DNA of 64,000 bases from Terriglobia bacterium (GTDB lineage: Bacteria > Acidobacteriota > Terriglobia > JAJPHL01). Position numbers and translations under genes: made by a program. Below the pieces are notes generated by a model. That model saw only the letters and a list, made by a program, of their open reading frames with translations. It was not told where the DNA came from and did no database searches. Below, one piece after another: positions 5,858-63,361 of this stretch; position 1 is the first letter of the stretch, and each line of letters begins with the position of its first letter. The stretch is from assembly GCA_021325275.1 (NCBI GenBank), contig JAJPHL010000033.1, positions 63,291-127,290 of the forward strand, given 5' to 3'.

Positions 5858-6916
5858 ATGCAGCAATCTGTAGCGATTACTCCGGGACGCGCGAATTCCA
5901 CGCGATTCGTGGAAATTCCCGATGCCCCCGCGCCAGGATCCGGCGAAGTTCGCGTGCGCGTGCTCGACGTCGGCATCGACGGCACGGATATGGAATTGAT
6001 CGCCGGACATTTCGGATCACCGCCGCCCGGCAGCGAGTTCCTGGTAATCGGCCACGAATGCCTGGGCGTGATCGAGCAAACCGGCGCGGGGGTCGCGCTG
6101 CGTCCCGGCGATTTCGTGGCGGCGATGGTGCGGCGTCCCGACGATTGCGCGAACTGTCGCGCGGGATCAAGCGACTTGTGCACTACGATGAAGTACACCG
6201 AGCGCGGCATCACCAGCGCGCACGGTTTTCTCACGTCGCACTACACGGATCGCGCGGAATTTGTCGTGCGCATCCCGCCGGAGTTGCGATCGATCGGTGT
6301 GATGACCGAACCGTGGTCGGTGGCGGCGAAGGCGCAGCGCCACGCTTGGGAAATTCAGCGGCGGATGATCTGGAGTCCCACGCGCGCGCTGGTGATGGGC
6401 GCGGGCAGCTTGGGATTGCTTGCGGCGTTCTTGTTGCGGCTGCGCGGACTCGAAGTCAGCGTGTTTTCGCGCGAGCCGGCCGATTCGTCGCGTGCGAAAT
6501 TACTGGAATGCGCCGGCGTCCGCTACTTGACGTCGCTGGAGTCAAAGCCCGGCGGCGAATATGATTTCGTCTTCGAGGCGACCGGCGCGCCGCAACTTGT
6601 GATCGCGGGACTGGAACGCTTGCGCGCCAGCGGCGTGATGGTCGTTTTGGGCACGGGGCACGATCGCGAGCCGAGGCCGCTGGCGTTGGGCCCGATCGCC
6701 ACACGCCTGATGATCAATAATCAAGTGCTGTTCGGCAGCGTCAATTCCAACCGCCGCGACTTCGAGCAGACCGTCGTCGATCTCGGCGAGATGGAACGCC
6801 GCTGGCCCGGCTTGATCGGCGCGATGTTCACGCGACGGGCGCCATTCGCGCGCTTCGCGGACGTGCTGCAGAGAGGGGAAGAGGATATCAAGGTTGCGAT
6901 CGAGGTCGGTGCGTGA
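5858..6916 (+). CDS. zinc-dependent medium-chain dehydrogenase/reductase (glucose/alcohol dehydrogenase-like)
   Basis: GHECLG Zn-binding motif, CxxC structural Zn site (CANCRAGSSDLC), Rossmann motif GAGSLG. 352 aa. Confidence 0.85.
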   Translation: MQQSVAITPGRANSTRFVEIPDAPAPGSGEVRVRVLDVGIDGTDMELIAGHFGSPPPGSEFLVIGHECLGVIEQTGAGVALRPGDFVAAMVRRPDDCANCRAGSSDLCTTMKYTERGITSAHGFLTSHYTDRAEFVVRIPPELRSIGVMTEPWSVAAKAQRHAWEIQRRMIWSPTRALVMGAGSLGLLAAFLLRLRGLEVSVFSREPADSSRAKLLECAGVRYLTSLESKPGGEYDFVFEATGAPQLVIAGLERLRASGVMVVLGTGHDREPRPLALGPIATRLMINNQVLFGSVNSNRRDFEQTVVDLGEMERRWPGLIGAMFTRRAPFARFADVLQRGEEDIKVAIEVGA

Positions 6917-6931
6917 AACCGACAGCATCCA

Positions 6932-7204
6932 ATGAAAAAGAAATCCACCGGTCGCCCTTGTGAATATTGTAATGGGATTGCAGAGTCCCGCACTATGCGG
7001 ATCGCATTCCCTTACATGGGCGAGACCACCTACATTGACGGTGTTCCCGTGTGGGTCTGCAACAAATGCGCGGAACAGTATTTCGACGGGCCGGTTTACG
7101 AACGTTTGGAGGCGATTGCCAAACGGCGCAACTCCTTGCGCAAGACGATTACCTTTCCTTTGGGCCGATACACCGCTGCGGCGCACATCAATCGGCCGGC
7201 CTAG
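6932..7204 (+). CDS. YgiT-type (MqsA-like) zinc-finger domain protein, stand-alone
   Basis: CEYCNG...CNKCAE pair of CxxC motifs with FPYMGE...GVPVWVC spacing typical of the TIGR03831 YgiT-type Zn finger. No toxin partner adjacent. Confidence 0.5.
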   Translation: MKKKSTGRPCEYCNGIAESRTMRIAFPYMGETTYIDGVPVWVCNKCAEQYFDGPVYERLEAIAKRRNSLRKTITFPLGRYTAAAHINRPA

Positions 7205-7207
7205 GGT

Positions 7208-9754
7208 TTAGTCCTGCCTGAGCGACGTCATCGGATCGACCGCCAACGCCCGCCGCACCGGACCCCACGTGGCGATCATGCCCGTGATCGCCAGCGTGAA
7301 CAGAACCGCGGAAAAACTCAGCGGATCGGTTGGGCGCAGGCCGGGAACCAAGAAAATCGCCAGGGGTTTCGCGATCAGCAGCGCTACCAACAGGCCGATC
7401 GCCGACCCGATGCCGATCAGTTGGGCCGAATCGATCAGCACCATGCGCGTAATATCGCGGGGAGCAGCGCCAATCGCGATCCGCACGCCGATTTCTCGCG
7501 TTCTCCGCGCCACAGAATAGACCATCACTCCATACAGGCCGATGGCCGCGAGTAACAACGCGAGCGCGCCGATCGTGCCCATGAGCACTCCCCCGACCTG
7601 GCTGGGTAGAAATGCCAAGCCAATGCTCGAATACATCGTGGCCACTTCCGTCCCGACCGCCGGATCCAGGCGGTGCAGGACTTCGTGAACCGGCTGGACT
7701 TGCTGGGCCGGCGGGATCGCGGAGCGCAGCACAAACTGGATCCGCGGACGGTTGTTGGCGATTTGCGTGAGCGTCTCGTACAATTGCGGCGCGTCTTCTT
7801 CGCCGATCGTCATGGTCTTCGTGCCTTCCACTACGCCGATGATTTCGTAAGGCGTCTTGCCCTGCGCGCCCCACAGGAAGGACGCGCCGATCGGTGGTTG
7901 ATTGCCTAGGTAGCGTTTCACGAACGTCCGATTGACCACCACCACGTGCTGTCCAGCGCGATCGTCATCGCGAAACACGCGCCCTTGTAAGACGGGAATG
8001 TCCATCACCTGGAAGAACGCCGGCGAGACGGCGTTCCATTGGAAAACGGCGCGAACCGTCTTGCCGCTCGACGGGAAGACGAGGTCGCTCGAGAAATGCG
8101 TGTTATCCGTGAACGGGACAATGCGCGCCACCGCGGCCCCTGTGATCCCAGGAATGGCTCCGAGCTCTCGCAGCGCTTGACCCGCATACAGGTTAATGTG
8201 TTGGCTGTCCTTGTAGGTTGCCGGCGGCAAGTGGATTTCGGCGCGCAGCGTGTTTCGAACGTCAAAGCCCGGGCTCATCGCCCCGGCCGCGCCGAGGTTG
8301 TGCAGGAATAAAAAGCCGATGAACAGAACAACCAGCGACACGGCTAATTGTGCGACCACCAGCGTCCGGCGTAGGCGCATCCCACGATCACGGTGGAAAT
8401 CGGCGGCAATCGATTCCTTCACCGACCGCCATGCCGGGAGCAGGCCGCAGGCGATCGTCGCGAAGACCGTCAGAAAAACGGCATAGGCGACCAATCGCCA
8501 GTCGGGCTCGATGCGCAGATGAATGGGAAGCGGCAACGGCAGACGAATCTGCGCCAGCATCGACGCCGTGAACTGCGACGCCGCCAAACCGCACGCCGCC
8601 CCTAGGATGGAAAGCAGCGAACTCTCGACGAGGAGTTGCTGCAGCAATCGGCCGCGGCCAGCGCCGAGCGCCAGACGGGTGGCCATTTCCGGCCGTCGCG
8701 CCGCGGCGCGCGCCAGCAGCAAACTGGCGACGTTGATGCACGCGATCAAAAGAACCAATCCGGTGACGCCCAGCAGCAGCGCCAGGAAAACGCCAGTGGA
8801 AAACATCTCGCTCTGTTCCGTCAGTCGCGCGACACCGGAAACAGCCATGAGCTGATTGTGCTTGTAATACTTAAACTGCTCCGGAAAGACCCTGTCGAGC
8901 TGCTGTGCCACGTTCTCCAGGGCGGCGCGCGCTTCTCCGCGGCTCATGCCGGGCTTCAGACGCGCATAGATAGCCAGCAGCGTAGCATCGAGATAGCTCG
9001 GCATGTAGAGGTCGGGTGAAAATCCAAAGCCGATCAACGTGCGATGATTGGCGGGCAGAATCCCGACGACCGTGCAGGCGCGTCCATCCAGATTGAGCGC
9101 GCGGCCGAGAATCGCCGGATCGCCATTCAAATGCTTGACCCAAAAATCGTGGCTGAGTACCACCACTTCCTTGGGATCGTTCGGCAGAATGCCGCGTCCA
9201 TACTCCACGGGAACGCCCAGCGAAGAAAAATAATTCATGCTCGTGGCGACGCCGAAGACGGGCCGCGTGTCGACGCCGTCGTTCCAATTCACGAAGACTT
9301 CTTCGTTGTTACCGGCGACGTCCTGGAACACTCCACTGTCGCGCACGAAATTGAGCACCCTTTCGGTAGAGTGGCTGTTGCCGCCCAAGCGGATCGCCAC
9401 CACCGACGATGCGTCGCGCAGCGACGGTTCGCTGAACAAGAACTCCATGCCGAGCGAGAACACCGTGCTGTTCACGCCGATTCCCAGTGCCAGCGAAACC
9501 AGCGCGGTAGCCACGAGCGCCGGCGAGCGCCGCAATCCGCGCGCGGCGTAGACGAGATCGCGTCCAAGATTCTCGAGGAAGACGAATCGCCATTGATCGT
9601 AGGCCTGCTCGCGGACCACGGTTTCGGTACCGCCGCGGCCCAGCGGCAGCGAGTTGCCGTGCTCGGCGGTCATCTCGCGGTGGAAAGCTAGTTCGTCTTC
9701 CAGGTCCTGCTGCAGGCGGCGCCGCCGCCAAAGTTTGAGCCAAAAGCGTCGCAT
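7208..9754 (-). CDS. ADOP-family duplicated FtsX/MacB-like ABC permease (module 1)
   Basis: 848 aa with two FtsX-like 4-TM permease repeats separated by large periplasmic domains. N-terminal region ...LRRSPALVATALVSLALGIGVNSTVFS is typical of acidobacterial duplicated orphan permeases. It sits 4 nt downstream of PadR. Confidence 0.9.
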   Translation of the reverse strand: MRRFWLKLWRRRRLQQDLEDELAFHREMTAEHGNSLPLGRGGTETVVREQAYDQWRFVFLENLGRDLVYAARGLRRSPALVATALVSLALGIGVNSTVFSLGMEFLFSEPSLRDASSVVAIRLGGNSHSTERVLNFVRDSGVFQDVAGNNEEVFVNWNDGVDTRPVFGVATSMNYFSSLGVPVEYGRGILPNDPKEVVVLSHDFWVKHLNGDPAILGRALNLDGRACTVVGILPANHRTLIGFGFSPDLYMPSYLDATLLAIYARLKPGMSRGEARAALENVAQQLDRVFPEQFKYYKHNQLMAVSGVARLTEQSEMFSTGVFLALLLGVTGLVLLIACINVASLLLARAAARRPEMATRLALGAGRGRLLQQLLVESSLLSILGAACGLAASQFTASMLAQIRLPLPLPIHLRIEPDWRLVAYAVFLTVFATIACGLLPAWRSVKESIAADFHRDRGMRLRRTLVVAQLAVSLVVLFIGFLFLHNLGAAGAMSPGFDVRNTLRAEIHLPPATYKDSQHINLYAGQALRELGAIPGITGAAVARIVPFTDNTHFSSDLVFPSSGKTVRAVFQWNAVSPAFFQVMDIPVLQGRVFRDDDRAGQHVVVVNRTFVKRYLGNQPPIGASFLWGAQGKTPYEIIGVVEGTKTMTIGEEDAPQLYETLTQIANNRPRIQFVLRSAIPPAQQVQPVHEVLHRLDPAVGTEVATMYSSIGLAFLPSQVGGVLMGTIGALALLLAAIGLYGVMVYSVARRTREIGVRIAIGAAPRDITRMVLIDSAQLIGIGSAIGLLVALLIAKPLAIFLVPGLRPTDPLSFSAVLFTLAITGMIATWGPVRRALAVDPMTSLRQD

Positions 9755-9758
9755 ATGG

Positions 9759-10091
9759 TCACCTCGAGAGAACGATCTGTACCGCCGTGGAGAGCCGATT
9801 CCAGGTTTGCGCTTGCGCGGCGAGCAGTTTTCGGCCGCGTTTCGTGATCTCGTAGTAGCGGGCGCGGCGATTGTTTTCGGAAACGCCCCAGTGAGCGCAA
9901 ATCGCGCCGTCGAGCTCCAGGCGATAGAGCGCCGGATAGAGCGATCCCTCTTCCACTGTCAGCACTTGGTCGGAAAGCAGGTGGATGGTTTGCGCGATCG
10001 CAAACCCATGCAGTTCGCCCCGCTGGAGCGCGTGCAGAATCAAGAGGTCGAGCGTGCCTTGCAGCAAACTGGGTTCGGTGGATTTGGCCAT
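9759..10091 (-). CDS. PadR family transcriptional regulator (module 1)
   Basis: [14 protein letters not shown]...LHGFAIAQTI...SLYPALYRLELDGAI...YYEITKRGRKLL is a canonical PadR wHTH. The 418-aa supplied ORF is trimmed to the conserved 110-aa protein. Confidence 0.9.
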   Translation of the reverse strand: MAKSTEPSLLQGTLDLLILHALQRGELHGFAIAQTIHLLSDQVLTVEEGSLYPALYRLELDGAICAHWGVSENNRRARYYEITKRGRKLLAAQAQTWNRLSTAVQIVLSR

Positions 10092-10131: not shown

Positions 10132-10223
10132 AATGTTCCATCGATTTTGTGAGAAAGAATTGCCGGCCGCGGAAGAGCTGGTTGAGGCAGCGTCCAAGCC
10201 CGGCTTGCTGCTACAATCGGGCC

Positions 10224-12029
10224 ATGCGAGATCGTCTGCTCTTGCTGTGTATGCTGGCCATGCCCGTGTCTTTGATGGCGCAAGCGCCCACCGTGGCCGA
10301 GGCGCACAAGTTCATCATCAAGGCCGAAAAGCAGCTCTTCGAGCTCAGCAACAAAGCGCAGCGCGCGGGCTGGGTCCAGGAAAACTTCATCACCGACGAC
10401 ACCGAGGGCATTTCCGCCGACGCGCAGCAGGAAGTGCTTGCCGCGACCACCGATTTGGCGCTGAAAGCCACGCGCTTCAATGGACTCAAGCTTCCGCCCG
10501 TCGACGCGCGCAAGTTTCTTTTGCTGAAATTGTCGCTGACGTTGCCCGCGCCGAAGAATCCCGCGGCGCAAGCCAGGCTCACCAAGATTTCCGTGGGACT
10601 CGATAGCGATTACGGCAAAGGCAAGTATTGTCCCCCCGCTTCCAACGGAGACGCGCCCAGCGGAAAATGCCTGTCGCTGAACGATCTCGAACGGACCATG
10701 GCGAGCAGCCGTGATCCAAACGAGATTCTCGCGGCGTGGAAAGGCTGGCATTCCATTGCGCCGCCGATGCGCCAGCGCTACGCGGAGATGGTGGATCTGG
10801 CCAACGTCGGCGCGCGCGACCTCGGCTTCAAGGATACCGGCGCGATGTGGCGGTCGAAATACGACATGCCGCCCGACGCGTTCGCGGCGGAGATGGATCG
10901 CTTGTGGAATCAAGTGCGGCCGCTCTACGACTCGCTGCACACCTACGTTCGCTACAAGCTCACCGAGAAATACGGCAAGGAAGTGGTCGGCCCCGGCCCG
11001 GGAATTCCCGCGCATCTACTCGGCAACATGTGGGCGCAGGAGTGGGGCAACATTTACGACATTGTCGCGCCGCCAGGTCCTGGGCCGGGCTACGATCTCA
11101 CGGCGTTGTTGCGCGCGAAAAATCTCGACGCGAAGGGAATGGTGCATTACGGCGAACGATTTTTCATGTCGCTGGGATTTCCTCCGCTGCCGAACACGTT
11201 TTGGGAGCGGTCGCTGTTCCTCAAGCCCGCCGATCGCGACGTAGTGTGTCACGCCAGCGCCTGGGACGTGGACGGCGATCAGGATTTGCGCGTCAAGATG
11301 TGTATCGAGATCACCGGTGAGTATTTCGTGACCATCCATCACGAACTCGGCCACGATTTTTACGATCGTGCGTACTCCAAGCAGGATCCATTTTTCCGCG
11401 ACAGCGCCAACGACGGTTTTCACGAAGCGATCGGCGATACGATCGCGCTTTCCGTCACGCCTGAGTATTTGAAAGAGATCGGATTGCTCGACAAAGTTCC
11501 CGGTCCCGAAGGCGACATTGGATTGTTGCTGCACAAGGCGCTCGATAAGGTCGCGTTTTTGCCGTTCGGGTTGCTGATCGATCAGTGGCGGTGGAAAGTT
11601 TTCTCCGGTGAGATCAAACCCGCCGACTACAACAAGGCGTGGTGGGAACTGCGCGCGAAATACCAAAGCGTGACGCCGCCGGTGGAGCGCACGGAAGTCG
11701 ATTTCGATCCCGGCGCGAAGTATCACGTGGCGTCGAGCACGCCGTACGCGCGATATTTCCTGGCCGACATTTTGCAATTCCAGTTTCATCGCGCGTTGTG
11801 CAAGGAAGCCGGATACAAAGGTCCGCTGCATCGTTGCTCGATTTACGCCAACAAGGCGGCGGGCGCGAAACTCGCCACAATGCTCGAGATGGGCGTGAGC
11901 CGTCCATGGCCCGAGGCGCTGGAAGCGATCAGCGGAGAAAAGCAAATGGACGCCACCGCGATTCTCGATTATTTCGCGCCGCTGAAAAAGTTTCTCGACG
12001 AAGAGAATGCCAAGCATGCCGGACGCTAA
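10224..12029 (+). CDS. M2 family peptidyl-dipeptidase (angiotensin-converting-enzyme-like zinc metallopeptidase), secreted
   Basis: HHELGH zinc-binding motif plus downstream HEAIGD, and ACE-like conserved blocks. Signal peptide MRDRLLLLCMLAMPVSLMAQA. Start moved to internal Met 25 codons into the supplied ORF. Confidence 0.8.
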   Translation: MRDRLLLLCMLAMPVSLMAQAPTVAEAHKFIIKAEKQLFELSNKAQRAGWVQENFITDDTEGISADAQQEVLAATTDLALKATRFNGLKLPPVDARKFLLLKLSLTLPAPKNPAAQARLTKISVGLDSDYGKGKYCPPASNGDAPSGKCLSLNDLERTMASSRDPNEILAAWKGWHSIAPPMRQRYAEMVDLANVGARDLGFKDTGAMWRSKYDMPPDAFAAEMDRLWNQVRPLYDSLHTYVRYKLTEKYGKEVVGPGPGIPAHLLGNMWAQEWGNIYDIVAPPGPGPGYDLTALLRAKNLDAKGMVHYGERFFMSLGFPPLPNTFWERSLFLKPADRDVVCHASAWDVDGDQDLRVKMCIEITGEYFVTIHHELGHDFYDRAYSKQDPFFRDSANDGFHEAIGDTIALSVTPEYLKEIGLLDKVPGPEGDIGLLLHKALDKVAFLPFGLLIDQWRWKVFSGEIKPADYNKAWWELRAKYQSVTPPVERTEVDFDPGAKYHVASSTPYARYFLADILQFQFHRALCKEAGYKGPLHRCSIYANKAAGAKLATMLEMGVSRPWPEALEAISGEKQMDATAILDYFAPLKKFLDEENAKHAGR

Positions 12030-12744
12030 GGTTGCCTTGATCACCGGTGGCGCGCGCGGCATCGGCCGCGCGTGTGCGTTGGCGCTGGCATCGCGCGGAT
12101 ATCGCGTGGCGATTGCCTGGCGGCGGAGTGCGGACGCTGCGGCCGAAACGCTGGCGGCCATGGGCGCGAACGGGCGATCCATCCAGTGCGACGTTTCCGA
12201 CCCCGCGCAAGCGGCTGGGCTGGTCGAGAGAGTGGAACGCGAATGGGGCCGCATCGACGTTTTGATCAACGGTGCGGGACCGTATCATCGCATCGCGCTT
12301 TTGGACGAGACGCCCGACGGCTGGCGCGAAATGTTCGACAACAACCTGCATCCCGTTTTCTACTTGAGCCGCGCCGCGGCGGCGGGGATGAAGTCGCGTT
12401 CCTGGGGGCGCATCGTAAGTTTCGCCATGGCCAACGCCGATCAAGGCGTAGGACAACCGCACGTCACCGCGCACTACATCGCCAAGGCCGGCGTGTTGAT
12501 GTTGACGCGTTCGCTCGCGAAAGTTCTCGCGCCGCACGGGATCACGGTCAACGCGATTTCGCCGGGATTCATCGATTCCGGCAGCGCGCCGGCCGAGGAA
12601 TTGCAGAAAATGGTAAAAACAATTCCCGCCGGATATGTCGGCACGCTCGAGGACGCCGTGCAAGCGGTGCTTTATCTGATCTCCGACGAAGCACGCTATG
12701 TGAACGGTGCGAACATCCAGTTGAGCGGGGCCTGGGGCGTTTAG
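12007..12744 (+). CDS. SDR family oxidoreductase (3-oxoacyl-ACP reductase-like)
   Basis: TGGARGIG glycine motif, NGAG, YxxxK (HYIAKAG) catalytic motif. Overlaps the peptidase 3' end by 23 nt. Confidence 0.85.
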   Translation: MPSMPDAKVALITGGARGIGRACALALASRGYRVAIAWRRSADAAAETLAAMGANGRSIQCDVSDPAQAAGLVERVEREWGRIDVLINGAGPYHRIALLDETPDGWREMFDNNLHPVFYLSRAAAAGMKSRSWGRIVSFAMANADQGVGQPHVTAHYIAKAGVLMLTRSLAKVLAPHGITVNAISPGFIDSGSAPAEELQKMVKTIPAGYVGTLEDAVQAVLYLISDEARYVNGANIQLSGAWGV

Positions 12745-12784
12745 TTGCGCATCCTGATTTCTTGAACCGCCCTTTCAGGGCTAG

Positions 12785-12948
12785 GCATATTGCTTGGCGT
12801 TTTCCGCGGGCGTCGCGGGGCTGAGCGGTGCGGCGTTTGGAAAGTACGGCGAAGGTTATTTGCGTTTCTCGTACGCGAACTCGATTGAAAATATCGGGAA
12901 GGCGATGCAGAAGATCGAAGCGGCCGTGACGGCCAAAGCGCACGCGTA
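12785..12948 (+). pseudogene. relic of a class I/II PLP-dependent aminotransferase (C-terminal ~54 codons only)
   Basis: The translation ...AGLSGAAFGKYGEGYLRFSYANSIENIGKAMQKIEAAVTAKAHA* matches the conserved C-terminus of aspartate/aromatic aminotransferases. An in-frame stop lies immediately upstream and there is no room for the rest of the gene after the SDR. Confidence 0.6.
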
Positions 12949-12974
12949 GGCGGCGACAATATGGTGAACCGCCG

Positions 12975-13598
12975 TTACGACTCGCGGCTGATATGAGCAG
13001 TTGCGTGCTTTAACGCATATGCGAGCCGTTTTCTCTCAATCTCGCTTAGCTCGTCGCTAATTGGGCCGTAGAGCTCGGCGACTCGACTGTACTGCTTAGC
13101 CGACCAGGCTGCGTCGGCATCCTTCCGCAGCCGGGCCAGCATCCGATTACGCTCGCCCATAATCGAGGCACGTTCATTCTGTCGGGCTAGGTCTTCATAA
13201 TATGACGTGGTCCCCAACAGAAACTGAGGGCCATACTTTTCGAGCAACGCAGCAACTTTCGGAACGATATTTCTGACCCCCTCTACGGAGCTCACTTGGA
13301 AGATCGTGGCACCACCGAATCCTTCCGACTTGTAAGCCTCTGTGCCTGCTGCTTTCAACACCACGTAGCCGAGCCCGTACGTCTCCGGACGATCTTTCCG
13401 GCCAACTTCGATGCCGATCTCGTAAGATCCTCGGCCATGAAAGACATTGACGAATACATCTTTGGACTCAAACCGGACGAAGGTAACGTCTTCGGTGACA
13501 GGGACCATTCCGTATGTGCGAAGGAAGAGGAAGTCCTTCAGCACCACCTCTTTGAAACCAAGCATCCAGCGATCTTTTCCAGGTTCAAAATGAAACAC
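12975..13598 (-). CDS. hypothetical protein (207 aa) in a low-GC island, downstream of mglA
   Basis: Clean ORF whose GC is clearly lower than the surroundings. No recognisable motifs. Same strand as mglA, 160 nt downstream. Confidence 0.6.
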   Translation of the reverse strand: MFHFEPGKDRWMLGFKEVVLKDFLFLRTYGMVPVTEDVTFVRFESKDVFVNVFHGRGSYEIGIEVGRKDRPETYGLGYVVLKAAGTEAYKSEGFGGATIFQVSSVEGVRNIVPKVAALLEKYGPQFLLGTTSYYEDLARQNERASIMGERNRMLARLRKDADAAWSAKQYSRVAELYGPISDELSEIERKRLAYALKHATAHISRES

Positions 13599-13759
13599 TG
13601 TTTCTCCATGGCGCGGCGCGTCGACAGAAGTTGAGTGTACGCTTGGCGCGAACGCGCCTACAGCAAGACGCTGGGTGTCTTCGCGCCGGACTTTCCACGA
13701 TGCTGGGCCCCGCCGCTCGATAACTGTCGCGGCTCGTTCCTTGCGCGGTGGCGCGACCG

Positions 13760-14338
13760 TTAGCCCTTCTTCAATTCCTCAAGGACTTGTCGCGCAACTT
13801 CACGAAGCGTCTCAAACACGCCCGTGCCTTTGTACGCCACCGCCTCAAACGTGGACTCGCCTTTGCGCACTAGTTGCGATTTCAGCTCGTCCAGCGGCAG
13901 CGCATTCGGCAAATCGCGTTTGTTGAATTGCAGCACGTACGGTACTTTCTCGAAATCGTAGCCGTGATCTTTGAGGTTCTCCTGCAAATTCTCGATCGCT
14001 TCGATATTCGCGTCCATGCGTTCTTCCTGCGAATCGGCGACAAAGACCACGCCGTCGACGCCGCGCAGGATCAACTTACGGCTGGCGTCGTAGAAAACCT
14101 GGCCGGGCACGGTGTAGAGATGGAAGCGCGTTTTGAATCCGCGCACGGTGCCGAGATCGAGGGGCAGGAAATCGAAGAACAACGTTCGATCGCTTTCGGT
14201 GGCCAGCGAGATCATCTTGCCCTTGTTGGGCGCGTTGTCGAAAATGTACTGCAAGTTGGTGGTCTTGCCGCCCAAACCGGCGCCGTAATAGACCAGCTTG
14301 CAGTTGATCTCTCGCGCGGCAAAGTTGATGAAACTCAA
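13760..14338 (-). CDS. mglA: MglA, Ras-like small GTPase (mutual gliding-motility protein A)
   Basis: Near full-length identity to Myxococcus MglA: MSFIN...[25 protein letters not shown]...[66 protein letters not shown]...[12 protein letters not shown]. No mglB (roadblock/LC7) gene on either side. Confidence 0.9.
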
Positions 14339-14543
14339 AGTGGCTCCCGGCTCTTGTGATTCGTAACAGATGCTAAGGGAATAGTTTATCGCGGCGTGTG
14401 GAACCGCCGCGCCCGTTTATATTTACCACAACGACACGTGGGAAGCAATGCATCTATCGACTCTAGGTCAACGGGGGTGGGCGCGCGTTCTAATCCCACG
14501 GGCTATCGCGTCAAGGAAGCCTGGAACATTCCGCGTGCTATGA

Positions 14544-15620
14544 TTGTCTAACTTTCATATGCTCTCCCTACTCGGCGGACTCCTGTTCTTCCAGATTGCG
14601 CTGATCTCCCCGAATGCGTCGCCGAACGGCGTCGACCTTTTGCCCGCCGACATTGCCGCATGGCACGCCGCGGCCGCGCCGGAAAAATTCTCGGTCGCGC
14701 AGTTGAACGCGTTCGCCACGGCCGACAACGCCGCCGTGCTCGACGAATTGGGATTCTTCGGAGCGCAGCGCCGGCAATACACCGGAGGGAAGGACATCGT
14801 AACGGTTGAAGCGATCCGCATGAAGGACCCCAGCGCGGCGTATGGCGCGTTCACATGGTTTCGCCAAACGGGATGGCGCGAGGAAACGAACTCGTCGCAC
14901 GATCCGCGCGCGTTTCAAGCCGCCGTGGGAGCGACCGACGCGGTGCTGCAGCGCAACAGTTACGTGGTGCACATCAGCGGAGTGGCGGCCACGCATCAGC
15001 AACTGGAGGCCGCCGCCGCCGCGTTGCCGTCGTTGGAAAACGAGCCGCTGCCCGCGCTCGCCAGTCATTTGCCGGCCTCGGGACTGGTGGGCGGTTCCGT
15101 GAAATACGCGTATGGTCCACAGCTTTTCGATCGCGTGGTTCCAGGGCTTCCCGCCATGGCCATGGGATTTCACTTGGGCGCCGAGGTTGTCGCCGGCGAG
15201 TATCGTTTGCCGGGAAAATCTCCGATGACGCTGGTGTTGGTGGAATATCCCACGCCGCAAATCGCGCGGAGTCTGGAGAAGAATCTCACGTCGCAGAATC
15301 TGAACGGCGCTCACGTGAAACGCGTGGGACCTTTGCTGGCGATCGTGCCGGGCGGCGCGTCCGATGCCGACGCCGCGCGACTCATCGATCAAGTTCATTA
15401 TGAAATGGCCGGCATGTGGGACGAAAAAGTGAGCAAGATCAAGGAACCGAGCTTCGCGCAGATGATCATCAGCATCTTCGAACTGTGCGGCATCCTTCTC
15501 GTGTTCTGCGTTCTCTCGGGAGCCGCCTACGGAGGTATCCGAGTGCTTACTCGCAGTAAGAATCCCGGATACGCTTTTGAGGGCGATGCCGACTTCATTT
15601 CGCTAAAGATAAATGGTTGA
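14544..15620 (+). CDS. hypothetical exported protein with C-terminal TM anchor
   Basis: N-terminal hydrophobic signal-like segment (LSLLGGLLFFQIALISP) and C-terminal TM (IISIFELCGILLVFCVLSGAAYGGI). No family recognised. Confidence 0.55.
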   Translation: MSNFHMLSLLGGLLFFQIALISPNASPNGVDLLPADIAAWHAAAAPEKFSVAQLNAFATADNAAVLDELGFFGAQRRQYTGGKDIVTVEAIRMKDPSAAYGAFTWFRQTGWREETNSSHDPRAFQAAVGATDAVLQRNSYVVHISGVAATHQQLEAAAAALPSLENEPLPALASHLPASGLVGGSVKYAYGPQLFDRVVPGLPAMAMGFHLGAEVVAGEYRLPGKSPMTLVLVEYPTPQIARSLEKNLTSQNLNGAHVKRVGPLLAIVPGGASDADAARLIDQVHYEMAGMWDEKVSKIKEPSFAQMIISIFELCGILLVFCVLSGAAYGGIRVLTRSKNPGYAFEGDADFISLKING

Positions 15621-15886: not shown

Positions 15887-17326
15887 TTATTTGCTTTCGG
15901 TTGCGGTTGGTTCGGGCTGTACTTGCGCGTCGAATGGGACGGTTAGGACCTGGCCCTGATACCGCACCTGAACCCAGATCCGATAGGCGCCCGGTTGCGG
16001 GAATCCGTAAGGAAAGGAGACGTCCGGTGCAATCTCATTCACGCCGGCATGCATCATGCTGTGATCCCCGAACGCCATCAGTGACGCCATCGGTACCGTT
16101 CCCGATGGGTGCACGTGCGCGAAGACCGAAAGATCGCGTTTCGCAATCACGGCGTGTCCGGCCATGCCCATGTATAGTTGCGTGCTCGGCACGGGTTTGC
16201 CGCTCGCGTCGAGTAAACGGAAATCGAGCGAGTAAGGACGACGAGCAACAAGCGTGGCCGGACGATCCCAGACGAGTTGCAGTCCGTTGGGTAAGGGCGC
16301 GGCGAAAGAATCGTCGGAATCGTTCAGCGTGCCAGTCGCAGTGGCCGCGCCCGCGGGAATCTGCAACTCGCCGGCGGGCGTTTCCGGAAATCCGCTCTGA
16401 TGCACGACGTCCGCGAACACACGATAGTCGCCGGGCGGCGCGGGCGGAAGCGGCGTTTCATAGCGCGCTGGTCCCGTGCGTTTGGGATGCAAATGATAGA
16501 ACGCGTCGAAATCGGGATAGCGCACGAGGAACAAATGCATCAAGTGCCCGTGATCTTCCACAAAGTCGTCGATGCTTCGCCAATGCATGATGCTGGGATC
16601 GCGCAAGCTCACCACGAGTTTGCCGCCTTCGATCGCAGAATCGAGACGCAGCGGCTGGTAAATATGATTCGCAAAGCTCGACGCTTCGGCGCTCCACCAG
16701 GAATTGCCCAACCACACGACCGCAGCGAAGGCCACAAGCGATACGGCCATCGCAATGCGCGCTTTGCTCCGCGATCGAGCGTCGGGCGGCGCGCCGGGCG
16801 TCAACTCGGCTTCGCGCACCGCCGCGCCGACAACGTTCACCGCGCCGATCACCAGAAACATCATGAGTCCGAAGAGCAAAATGCCCATGCCGCGCGGCAT
16901 CCCCAGCACGGCGCGCGACGTGGAGGGCGTGGGCACGCTCATTACGCCTTCGCCGCGCGATCCTTTGGCGATCACGCGAACGTCATAGGATCCGGTGCCC
17001 ATGAACCAGACTTGTCCGGTGAAGTATTGCGGATCGCTCGAGGATTGCTTAAGCACGTCCGGCACCGGCGCGCCGAGTTTCTGCGTGGCGTAAGTGATCG
17101 GCTGAATCTTCAGCGACGGGATTTCGCCCGGTGCGAGTTTTCCACGCAAGTACACTTCGACTTCGGCGATCCCCGGCACGATCGCCGGCGGTCGCACGAC
17201 CACGGTCATGTTGTAGGGACCCGCTTTGCCTTCGAGGTAGACGTCGGGACTTCCCACGTGTGCTGACAGCGGAAGGCAAAAGGCAAAAGTCAAAAGGCGA
17301 AAGGCAAAAGTGCGGAAGGGCTTCAT
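15887..17326 (-). CDS. hypothetical exported His-motif-rich protein (possible metal-binding), distal gene of a two-gene operon
   Basis: Signal peptide MKPFRTFAFRLLTFAFCLPLSAHV. Conserved-looking His clusters (EDHGHLMHLF, YHLHPK, GMAGHAVIA, FAHVHPSG, HSMMHAG). One TM mid-protein. Its start overlaps the upstream gene's stop (ATG/TAA share 1 nt). Start trimmed 8 codons from the supplied ORF. Confidence 0.65.
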   Translation of the reverse strand: MKPFRTFAFRLLTFAFCLPLSAHVGSPDVYLEGKAGPYNMTVVVRPPAIVPGIAEVEVYLRGKLAPGEIPSLKIQPITYATQKLGAPVPDVLKQSSSDPQYFTGQVWFMGTGSYDVRVIAKGSRGEGVMSVPTPSTSRAVLGMPRGMGILLFGLMMFLVIGAVNVVGAAVREAELTPGAPPDARSRSKARIAMAVSLVAFAAVVWLGNSWWSAEASSFANHIYQPLRLDSAIEGGKLVVSLRDPSIMHWRSIDDFVEDHGHLMHLFLVRYPDFDAFYHLHPKRTGPARYETPLPPAPPGDYRVFADVVHQSGFPETPAGELQIPAGAATATGTLNDSDDSFAAPLPNGLQLVWDRPATLVARRPYSLDFRLLDASGKPVPSTQLYMGMAGHAVIAKRDLSVFAHVHPSGTVPMASLMAFGDHSMMHAGVNEIAPDVSFPYGFPQPGAYRIWVQVRYQGQVLTVPFDAQVQPEPTATESK

Positions 17327-18489
17327 TATCGTTGGATGCGCCGCATCCAATCTCCCCAGCCCAGCGAGGCGCGCGCGCAGATGAAACTGATTCCGAGCGC
17401 CGTGGCCATGCCGATCGCGAATTGCGCGGGCGCGTCGGGCGGGAAGAACTCATTGCGCGACATGGTGAAATCCGGCGGCAGGTAGTACGGCACGTATTTC
17501 GTACCGAAGAACCAGTTGCGCGCCGCCGGCGACATCAAGAAGTCGGCGAACGGCCACTGCACTGCGAAGAACACCGCCAGAAACGCCACCGACACCGCCA
17601 GCGCCAGCAACCACTTGTTCATCCGCTCGAAACGCTTCAGCATCACGTCGAGCAAGATGGCCGGCACGATGAACAGCAGCGGAAAGTCGGGCGGCATGAA
17701 GTAATTGATTTGCTGGTAGACCGGCCCGAGCTTCGGCTCCGCGCCGAAAAGCGGCAGGATCACCACCAGCGCGATCATCACCACCGAGTAAATCCCCGCG
17801 ACAATCGTGGCCGACCACTTGTTGCCGCAGGCGCGCGCGATGCCGGTCAACACCAGCAGCGCCGCCGGCGTCAGGACACGATAAAACAGCGACTGATGCA
17901 TCTGCGAGCGGTGATCGTTTTCCATCATCACCGTCATCAGCGCCAGGAACATCATCGCCGCGCCGTAGAGATACATCCACTCGAGCACTTGGCGCTTCGG
18001 GCCGCTGGCGCGATTCATTTCGCCCAGGATCATGATCAGCACGCCGAACTGAATCGTCTGCAATCCCAGCGCCAGCACCATGTGCGGCGGACTCAAAATT
18101 TTCACGTCGAGGCCATAGGCGTTGTGCCACCAATTGTCGAACGGCGCCGAAGTCAGCATCGCCACCGCGCCCCAAATGCACAGGAAAATTCCCAGCGGTG
18201 CGCGGAATCCCCACAACCCCACCGTGGACTCGCGCTGCGCGTCGCGCGGACCAAACGTGCGCAGCAGCGTGACCGCGCCGCCGCCGAATCCCGCGATCAC
18301 TCCGCACAAATAAATCGCCATGTGCGCGGGAGTCCAAAACGTGTCGCGGCCGATCGAGCGATGCCAGGAAATGTCCCACTGCCCGCCGAGCACCGCCGAG
18401 GTGGTGGCGATCAATCCGGCCCACAGATACCAGGGAATTGTCTCCTCGCGTTCGATCGCGAACGCGGGGTTCAAAGTCGTGGCCGCCAT
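17326..18489 (-). CDS. hypothetical polytopic integral membrane protein (about 9-10 TM), proximal gene of the operon
   Basis: 387 aa, many hydrophobic helices, Trp-rich loops (WDISWHRSIGRDTFWTPAHMAIY). Translationally coupled to the downstream His-rich protein. Confidence 0.65.
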   Translation of the reverse strand: MAATTLNPAFAIEREETIPWYLWAGLIATTSAVLGGQWDISWHRSIGRDTFWTPAHMAIYLCGVIAGFGGGAVTLLRTFGPRDAQRESTVGLWGFRAPLGIFLCIWGAVAMLTSAPFDNWWHNAYGLDVKILSPPHMVLALGLQTIQFGVLIMILGEMNRASGPKRQVLEWMYLYGAAMMFLALMTVMMENDHRSQMHQSLFYRVLTPAALLVLTGIARACGNKWSATIVAGIYSVVMIALVVILPLFGAEPKLGPVYQQINYFMPPDFPLLFIVPAILLDVMLKRFERMNKWLLALAVSVAFLAVFFAVQWPFADFLMSPAARNWFFGTKYVPYYLPPDFTMSRNEFFPPDAPAQFAIGMATALGISFICARASLGWGDWMRRIQR

Positions 18490-62463: not shown

Positions 62464-62540
62464 GCAACCGCAGATGAACGCAGATAAACGCAGATTCGGA
62501 ATTGTGTTATCTGCGTTCATCTGCGTTTATCTGCGGTTGC
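62464..62540. repeat. 77-bp near-perfect palindrome built from tandem CGCAGAT(G/A)AA heptamer/decamer units, spanning the ApbE start codon and signal-peptide coding region
   Basis: Left arm gcaaccgcagatgaacgcagataaacgcagat and right arm atctgcgttcatctgcgtttatctgcggttgc (2 mismatches), with a 13-nt loop. Begins 8 nt after the oxidoreductase stop. Confidence 0.7.
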
Positions 62541-63361
62541 TTTCGTTTGGTCTTGCCGCGCAGGAAATCCGCTATGAGGCTTCCCATGTTTCCATGGGAA
62601 GCGAATATCAAATCGTGGTCTACGGACCGAATCGCGCGGTTCTCGCCGAAGCGTGCGAGCAAGCGTTCGCCGAGATCGATCGCCTGGACGATTTGCTCAG
62701 CAACTACAAACCGCAGAGCGAACTTTCGCGCGTGAATGCGACGGCCGCCAAAGGTCCCGTGAAAGTCACGCCCGAGTTCTTCGACTTTCTTCGCGTCTCC
62801 GACGAGTTTCGCCGCCAAACGTTCGGCGCCTTCGATATCACCCTGGGACGCGGCCGGCTCTCGCTCGATACGCGCAACTCCACCGTCGAGTTCACGACTC
62901 CAGAAGTCAAACTCGATCCCGGCGGCATCGGCAAAGGACTGGCCGTCGATCACGCCATCGACATTTTGAAAGCGGCCGGCATCAAGCGCGCGCTGGTGAG
63001 CGCCGGGATGAGCACGATCAACGCGATCGGCACGCCGCCGGGCGAAGATCAAGGATGGAAGATCACGATTCGCTCGCCGAAATCGAAGGACATCGCGGCG
63101 GCGACGGTATATCTGAAAGACAATTCGTTGAGCACGTCCGCAACGTACGAGAAGGGCCGCCACATCATCGACCCTCGAACCAAAAAGCCCCCGGAAAATG
63201 GTGTCGAGGCCGTTTCGTCGATGGCCATCACCGGAACGGAGTCCGACGCAATCACGAAATGCTTTTTTGTTCTCGGGCGCCAGGGCGCCTCCGCGTTTTT
63301 GCGCGCGCATCCCAGCGATCGCGCGTTGGTGTGCGACCCGGAATGCTCCTGGGTGAAGTGA
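62474..63361 (+). CDS. FAD:protein FMN transferase (ApbE family), exported
   Basis: Signal peptide MNADKRRFGIVLSAFICVYLRLLSF. ApbE blocks ...HVSMGSEYQIVVY..., LDPGGIGKGLAVD, STSATYEKGRHIIDPRT. Start set at Met 72 codons into the supplied ORF, because the upstream part overlaps the Gfo gene. Confidence 0.8.
   Translation: MNADKRRFGIVLSAFICVYLRLLSFGLAAQEIRYEASHVSMGSEYQIVVYGPNRAVLAEACEQAFAEIDRLDDLLSNYKPQSELSRVNATAAKGPVKVTPEFFDFLRVSDEFRRQTFGAFDITLGRGRLSLDTRNSTVEFTTPEVKLDPGGIGKGLAVDHAIDILKAAGIKRALVSAGMSTINAIGTPPGEDQGWKITIRSPKSKDIAAATVYLKDNSLSTSATYEKGRHIIDPRTKKPPENGVEAVSSMAITGTESDAITKCFFVLGRQGASAFLRAHPSDRALVCDPECSWVK

Follow-up and report, generated by a model that had tools for sequence, protein, structure and literature searches.

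A probable orphan immunity gene of the Rhs toxin type beside a native, MglB-less mglA in a Terriglobia genome

A 64,000-nucleotide stretch of DNA from a Terriglobia bacterium (assembly GCA_021325275.1, contig JAJPHL010000033.1, positions 63,291 to 127,290), here called the window, carries at positions 12745 to 14543 a gene for the Ras-like GTPase MglA, a gene for a 207-amino-acid (aa) protein (p207) and the remains of an aminotransferase gene. Gene order and sequence conservation suggest that this segment is a small mosaic, and that it probably reflects ordinary genome flux around a native mglA, with p207 as an orphan immunity gene of the polymorphic toxin type. The changes are best described as a single-gene horizontal insertion and a deletion scar. 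All searches of the window covered these 64 kb.

Results

Homologs of p207 are encoded next to Rhs toxins and other competition genes. P0004 (62% identical to p207, locus L095) starts 11 bp after the gene for a 662-aa RHS/YD-shell protein, which has Pfam matches to TEN_YD-shell and RHS_repeat (faint). P0050 (34%, locus L094) overlaps by 4 bp the end of the gene for a 1762-aa protein with no Pfam match, and genes for PT-HINT and integrase proteins are nearby. P0002 (72%, loci L005/L006) has an uncalled fragment of a C-terminal toxin domain (CT) 12 nt upstream, and PIN and Fic genes are nearby. P0008 (58%) comes after Rhs/YD-shell genes and two more small genes; P0031 (56%) is an orphan beside a HicA gene. 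The family is also linked to other immunity domains: an Imm42 gene follows P0002, and the 306-aa P0053 (34%) is fused to SMI1_KNR4/SUKH-1 (E = 6e-12). The 778-aa P0190, found as a profile match, contains five tandem copies of the p207 N-terminal domain.

Three of these homologs are preceded by the same domain. The last ~100-125 aa of the proteins preceding P0004 and P0050 are 49-55% identical (E = 6e-26) and follow Rhs core-end motifs, NPLRYTDPNGR in L095 and FSDPSGLEP in L094. P0002 is preceded by a fragment that shares 73% identity with the L095 copy (E = 5e-35). Pairwise identities among the three CT domains are 49-73%, and the homologs that follow them are 72%, 62% and 34% identical to p207. 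Because one CT domain and one downstream family persist together to 34% identity, the association bears the signature of a cognate toxin/immunity pair. The ~100-aa CT domain (L095 368-670; L094 6681-7001; L005 7729-7965, uncalled) has the conserved sequence NWAQN...PIRDAS...NTGFLRAERNLLExxGWTY.

In the window the gene stands alone. P0004, P0050 and P0002 lie directly downstream of a toxin CT, but p207 of the window does not. Two possibilities were considered and rejected for lack of any match: that the 161-bp spacer ahead of p207 holds the remnant of a toxin CT, and that a cognate Rhs toxin is encoded elsewhere in the 64 kb. Because the 64 kb hold neither a CT remnant nor an Rhs gene, p207 is classed as an orphan immunity-type gene, and we infer that its product is an orphan immunity protein for an Rhs/YD-repeat toxin CT.

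The p207 gene appears intact, and its family is large and unannotated. It lies at 12975-13598 on the minus strand and begins with GTG, with GGAG at 13604-13607. Public gene calls give a 196-aa protein from Met12. The 207-aa reading is preferred because the family has a conserved N-terminus, MFxxEPGKDRWxLGF, and because GGAG precedes the GTG. The open reading frame (ORF) is full length and keeps all invariant and nearly invariant residues of the family, and the identical sequence is present in seven contigs from several samples. A word-indexed search found 54 homologs, and an exhaustive profile search found 2,495 cluster representatives at E <= 1e-3. The protein matches nothing in Pfam (even at E <= 1), NCBIfam or PADLOC, and scans of its homologs against the same three collections yielded no known family. 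There was also no match to plasmids by tblastn, nor to the PDB in a sequence-profile search with the family alignment. The AlphaFold 2 model (pLDDT 92) has an N-terminal alpha/beta domain, made of short helices, a four-stranded antiparallel sheet and two helices, followed by long helical hairpins. A Foldseek search of the PDB with this model found no relative (best E 0.29).

The compositionally foreign part of the segment is p207 alone. Its GC content of 53.5% is the lowest of the 49 ORFs (z -2.9), and its GC content at third codon positions (GC3) is 0.60 (z -2.45). The GC3 of mglA, of the short-chain dehydrogenase/reductase (SDR) gene and of the DUF6599 gene is host-typical. A preliminary description of this DNA had placed p207 below a local GC of ~63%; the low value stands, but the mean of the window is 60.6%. 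The mglA gene also has a low GC content (55.4%), which is due to amino acid composition only, and its GC3 is host-typical (0.755, z +0.6).

A related locus retains the arrangement that preceded the insertion. A protein search recovered a subclade of 192-aa MglA proteins with 86-96% identity to that of the window, including the MglA of locus L099, the closest relative, on a 586-kb contig. There the order is a DUF6599 gene (minus strand), mglA (plus strand), a 94-nt spacer and an intact gene for a 385-aa Aminotran_1_2 protein (minus strand), which is convergent with mglA. Positions 13760-14956 of the window, covering mglA and part of the DUF6599 gene, match L099 10579-9313 in a contiguous blastn alignment with 74.5% identity. 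The spacer between the convergent mglA and aminotransferase genes is 94 bp in L099 and 810 bp in the window, where it holds p207. The ancestral order shown by this comparison is a DUF6599 gene divergent from mglA and an aminotransferase gene convergent with it, with a hairpin spacer between the latter two. On the same evidence p207 is a strain-specific insertion, because its next match after itself is only 72% identical although relatives of MglA at 92-96% identity were sampled. In L099 the 94-nt spacer (10580-10673) folds into a long and almost perfect hairpin (-62 kcal/mol), probably a bidirectional terminator, which the window lacks.

The aminotransferase gene was lost at a different junction. 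Codons 1 to about 338 are missing on the SDR side, at the 61-bp breakpoint between the SDR stop codon and the first homologous aminotransferase codon (12745-12805). The preliminary description had proposed a horizontally acquired insertion that truncated the aminotransferase. The foreign insertion is borne out by the GC3 of p207 and by the pre-insertion state in L099, but the truncation lies at the separate SDR-side junction. The p207 insertion did not truncate the gene, because the relic's own 3' end and stop codon still face p207. The block of PadR, M2 peptidase and SDR genes that now adjoins the relic is absent from L099, where genes for CoA-binding, PemK, FtsK, BacA and CarD proteins stand in its place; none of these is found in the window.

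The relic is the genuine C-terminus of an aminotransferase. It had been described as 54 codons at 12785..12948. The frame is open from 12785 to a stop at 12947-12949, but real homology covers only 47 codons, 12806-12946, so that the feature proper, a class I/II pyridoxal phosphate (PLP) aminotransferase 3' relic with its original stop, occupies 12806-12949 on the plus strand. The Joint Genome Institute (JGI) annotation has a 51-aa ORF over it, starting from TTG at 12794. As the preliminary description had supposed, the relic does align with aminotransferases: it is hit by aminotransferase models of NCBIfam (E = 3e-11) over profile positions 342-389 of 391, and aminotransferase C-termini match by tblastn at E about 2e-15. 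Over 38 aa it shares 89% identity with residues 339-376 of the L099 protein, its intact positional orthologue, and nucleotides 12806-12930 correspond to L099 10817-10693 with 78% identity. Only the last 47 residues remain of a complete fold, without the PLP-binding lysine, and no further aminotransferase fragments occur anywhere in the 64 kb. By this homology the relic is a pseudogene remnant of the aminotransferase gene that is intact in L099. Its ratio of nonsynonymous to synonymous substitution rates (dN/dS) against L099 is 0.14 over 47 codons, and for this reason the truncation is suggested to be recent relative to the split from L099. The idea that the relic is a conserved mini-ORF was rejected, since a 54-aa query matched only C-terminal fragments of ordinary aminotransferases, from the ends of contigs or from a low-coverage contig with frameshifts.

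Other scars occur around this locus. L099 carries at 8121-8345 a 77-aa C-terminal relic that is 56% identical to the product of a 487-aa gene intact in the window (15887-17350), so the neighborhood appears to gather reciprocal deletion scars in different lineages.

The mglA gene is native and conserved. It occupies 13760-14338 on the minus strand, starts with TTG preceded by GGGAG, and encodes 192 aa. The product matches the MglA of Myxococcus xanthus (PDB 6hjh) over residues 1-192 (phmmer, E = 1.7e-86) and that of Thermus thermophilus (3t12) at E = 1e-74. The P-loop G19AGLGGKT26, R51 (R53 in M. xanthus), T76VPGQ80 and N139KRD142 are intact; the intrinsic Arg finger R51 and the catalytic Gln of TxxGQ are kept, while Thr replaces Asp in G3. 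The near-canonical MglA of the preliminary description is thus upheld, and by these motifs the protein is a group-1 MglA, a bacterial Ras-like GTPase, of a 192-aa Terriglobia clade. It is 96% identical to L099 MglA, with a dN/dS of 0.03 between the two genes. From this value and the presence of all catalytic motifs, mglA is judged to be functional and, as a native gene, under strong purifying selection. A 2-aa deletion after the P-loop is shared by the 192-aa subclade. Several JGI records label such proteins 'signal recognition particle receptor subunit beta'.

There is no mglB in the window, as the preliminary description had observed for the immediate flanks of mglA. Four acidobacterial MglB proteins verified by Robl_LC7 gave a best tblastn E of about 2 across the 64 kb, and a hidden Markov model (HMM) built on them reached no better than E = 2.1 with any six-frame ORF; control MglB proteins match Robl_LC7 at E = 2e-15. 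The window mglA therefore falls in the orphan class, lacking coupling to mglB within four genes.

An orphan mglA is the normal state in Terriglobia. Contexts were counted at the best 80 loci from species-representative genomes, with MglA identities of 76-87%; the 192-aa subclade is not among them and came from the separate protein search. A Roadblock gene, mglB, lies directly upstream of mglA at only five of the 80 loci, all outside Terriglobia (Pyrinomonadaceae, Chloracidobacterium and others). About 60 of the 80, from Terriglobia, have no mglB within 8 kb of mglA. The neighbors of the window mglA were found at none of the 80. In a published census 390 of 449 MglA proteins were coupled to mglB within four genes and 59 were orphans (Wuichet & Sogaard-Andersen 2014, PMC4316618). 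It enters Koribacter versatilis Acid345_0708 as 'MglA>' (194 aa) and Chloracidobacterium as 'MglB>MglA>', and its table of orphan MglB proteins has no entry for Acidobacteria. The orphan state was thus already documented for Koribacter in 2014.

The surroundings of MglB-less mglA genes are themselves conserved. At the same ~60 loci two conserved VWA-domain genes stand ahead of a 194-aa mglA, one running divergently and the other in the same direction, as in L011 (5437-6450, minus strand, and 6553-7809, plus strand, upstream of mglA at 8001-8585). These genes are candidate functional partners of MglA in Terriglobia. In L100 (8146-10579; MglA 92% identical) the order is CofD (minus strand), TPR (minus strand) and mglA, and the upstream context is that of the mglB-bearing loci L078 and L079 minus mglB, as if mglB had been cleanly removed from the place that it held in the ancestor. 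The window gene was considered as a divergent paralogue of the VWA-linked copy, and this was rejected: it is an orthologue in a distinct 192-aa subclade with its own context, as in L099.

That context is a divergent DUF6599 gene. The intergenic region between the two genes is 205 bp long (14339-14543), as in the preliminary description, and can be aligned with L099. The DUF6599 gene (14544-15620, plus strand; Pfam DUF6599, E = 1.7e-13) forms the right flank of the rearranged segment, and its arrangement is the same in L099. In L091 a small Cys-rich, zinc-finger-like ORF (27-245) precedes a DUF6599 gene (662-1774, product 64% identical) and there is no mglA; the pairing of the two genes is thus considered confined to the closest lineage. 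Scanning metagenomes with the DUF6599 protein yielded only one locus, of 2.5 kb.

The p207 protein bears no likeness to MglB. It had been proposed as an MglA partner or effector replacing MglB, and this is contradicted by its homologs, which accompany Rhs toxins and occur without mglA. A comparison of the p207 and MglB profiles by hhalign gave a probability of 0.1%, and neither sequence profiles nor the predicted fold resembled Roadblock or longin proteins, in keeping with the Pfam and Foldseek results. No p207 homolog lies near mglA at any of 82 other mglA loci, including those with MglA 96% and 92% identical, and no mglA lies near p207 homologs in six independent contexts.

The remaining features of the region concern its left flank, its spacers and possible marks of a mobile element. 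The left side consists of genes for a MacB/FtsX permease (7208-9754, minus strand), PadR (about 9759-10091, minus strand), an M2 peptidase (10149-12029, plus strand) and the SDR oxidoreductase (12007-12744, plus strand; Pfam adh_short_C2, E = 1e-51; GC3 0.76), which is the left flank of the rearranged segment. The 25-bp spacer between the relic stop and the p207 stop (12950-12974) has a weak hairpin (RNAfold, -7 kcal/mol) with no U-tract and no predicted terminator. The 161 bp that separate the mglA stop from the p207 start (13599-13759) have no predicted terminator and no likeness to the 94-nt hairpin spacer of L099, so read-through from mglA into p207 would be possible. No tRNA was found in the window, no Rfam family matched, the segment has no flanking repeats beyond chance-sized matches, and no integrase is among the genes bordering it. 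The junctions are identical in four independent assemblies (JGI contig Ga0070734_10000206, the NCBI metagenome-assembled genome and two Logan runs) and are therefore not assembly artefacts. Two other ORFs, 6542-7186 and 62507-63310 (both minus strand), stand out by a very low GC3 (z -2.4 and -2.8), match nothing in Pfam and may be mis-called frames or further foreign genes.

Discussion

The history of the segment can be read as two changes to an older arrangement. The ancestor had a DUF6599 gene divergent from mglA and an aminotransferase gene convergent with it; in this strain the convergent spacer has come to hold about 0.8 kb with the foreign p207. Of the aminotransferase gene only the final 47 codons are left, joined at a second breakpoint to the unrelated PadR-M2-SDR block. 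Elsewhere, members of the p207 family would bind and neutralize the particular ~100-aa toxin CT encoded just before them; the toxin-less copy of the window would serve as protection only when competitors deliver that toxin. MglA would work as in other Terriglobia, with no adjacent MglB and with its own Arg finger and catalytic Gln.

Several observations weigh against this account. Synonymous divergence (dS) between the window and L099 is about 1 and the spacers cannot be aligned, so that the insertion is bounded at finest by the two stop codons. The p207 insertion and the aminotransferase loss may be one replacement or two separate events. Six independent contexts of p207 homologs were inspected, three of them with the cognate CT. 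Searches of Pfam, NCBIfam and the PDB assign the CT domain to no known family. Neither an Rhs gene nor a toxin CT occurs in the 64 kb, and a promoter-like site for p207 was looked for and not found.

Some of these points would also fit a silent passenger, the immunity half of a decayed orphan toxin-CT/immunity module that is neither expressed nor under selection. The lack of a toxin, CT remnant or Rhs gene nearby and of a promoter-like site agrees with this, as do the scars of the neighborhood (the aminotransferase relic here and the relic of the 487-aa gene in L099). However, the full-length ORF, the retention of every invariant and nearly invariant family residue, the good GGAG ribosome-binding site and the identical copies in seven contigs from several samples count against it, and this explanation is considered unlikely.

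It is less likely still that the family is associated with Rhs toxins in a role other than immunity, as a toxin-specific chaperone or adaptor or as an antitoxin-like regulator. The CT matches no family of known function, which leaves room for such a role. The place directly 3' of the CT, with a gap of 11-12 bp or an overlap of 4 bp, is nevertheless the canonical immunity position, and family members also occur as stand-alone orphans, beside Imm42 and fused to SUKH-1. Adaptors and chaperones of type VI secretion systems (T6SS), such as Eag/DUF1795 and DUF4123, are usually encoded upstream of the toxin gene, which counts against this role as well.

A new MglA partner, whether a GTPase-activating protein or an effector, that replaces MglB and is co-transcribed with mglA is very improbable: p207 is co-directional with mglA, 161 bp downstream with no predicted terminator between, there is no mglB in the window, and an N-terminal alpha/beta domain without clear structural relatives could carry a new function, but p207 homologs are absent from all 82 other mglA loci, they accompany Rhs toxins, toxin-antitoxin genes and Imm42 and never mglA, and the foreign GC3 of p207 suggests a recent arrival whereas MglB-less MglA is old and clade-wide. 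There is correspondingly only a very slight chance that read-through from mglA has coupled the expression or function of p207 to MglA in this strain.

The orphan immunity reading of p207 has a broader counterpart, held with somewhat less confidence but still favored. The p207 family and the ~100-aa CT may form a widespread, unannotated Rhs toxin/immunity pair with an N-domain fold that has no PDB counterpart, and the stand-alone copies of soil Acidobacteria may be an acquired defense against the Rhs toxins of their neighbors. This candidate toxin/immunity family comprises about 2,500 sequence clusters that Pfam, NCBIfam and PADLOC all lack, and lists of the genes with which soil bacteria compete could be extended by it. 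What the analysis offers for MglA biology is a useful negative: the apparent 'novel partner' is a hitch-hiking gene. The lack of MglB is a clade-wide trait of Terriglobia and not a peculiarity of this locus, and the VWA gene pair, the CofD-TPR genes and DUF6599 are better leads to the regulation of MglA in this group.

Comparison with known systems

The MglA of the window resembles characterized MglA proteins but lacks their usual companion. It aligns end to end with M. xanthus MglA and shares the catalytic motifs of the M. xanthus and T. thermophilus MglA/MglB modules (6hjh, 3t12); unlike in those modules, no MglB (Roadblock/LC7) is present at the locus, and p207 is not a Roadblock protein. 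Distant Acidobacteria (Pyrinomonadaceae, Chloracidobacterium) retain mglB-mglA. The closest parallel is the orphan MglA of Koribacter versatilis, which is likewise near-canonical, with an intrinsic Arg finger, TxxGQ and no mglB within four genes. The window protein differs from the Koribacter-type 194-aa clade in belonging to the 192-aa subclade and in having a DUF6599 gene, not the VWA pair, as its neighbor. The MglA of Bdellovibrio bacteriovorus reportedly has Ser at the Gly21 position, whereas the window MglA keeps Gly21 and is therefore presumably a cycling GTPase. The two are alike in that Bdellovibrio MglA works in a genome without MglB (Milner et al. 2014, PMC3983030).

The p207 gene compares with known orphan immunity genes and CT/immunity modules of the Rhs, contact-dependent inhibition (CDI) and T6SS type (Poole et al. 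2011, PMC3150448; Serratia Rhs, PMC10539506; gut Bacteroidales, PMC12247911). It differs from them in that neither its family nor the cognate CT is represented in Pfam, NCBIfam, PADLOC or the PDB, and in that p207 is a single gene between two housekeeping-type genes with no rhs locus or immunity island. The likenesses concern family and gene alike. Elsewhere the family is represented by a gene for a small cytoplasmic protein directly 3' of a variable CT that follows an Rhs core-end motif, and other members are orphans without a toxin, stand in arrays with Imm42 or are fused to SUKH-1. Like known orphan immunity genes, p207 itself is compositionally foreign and strain-specific.

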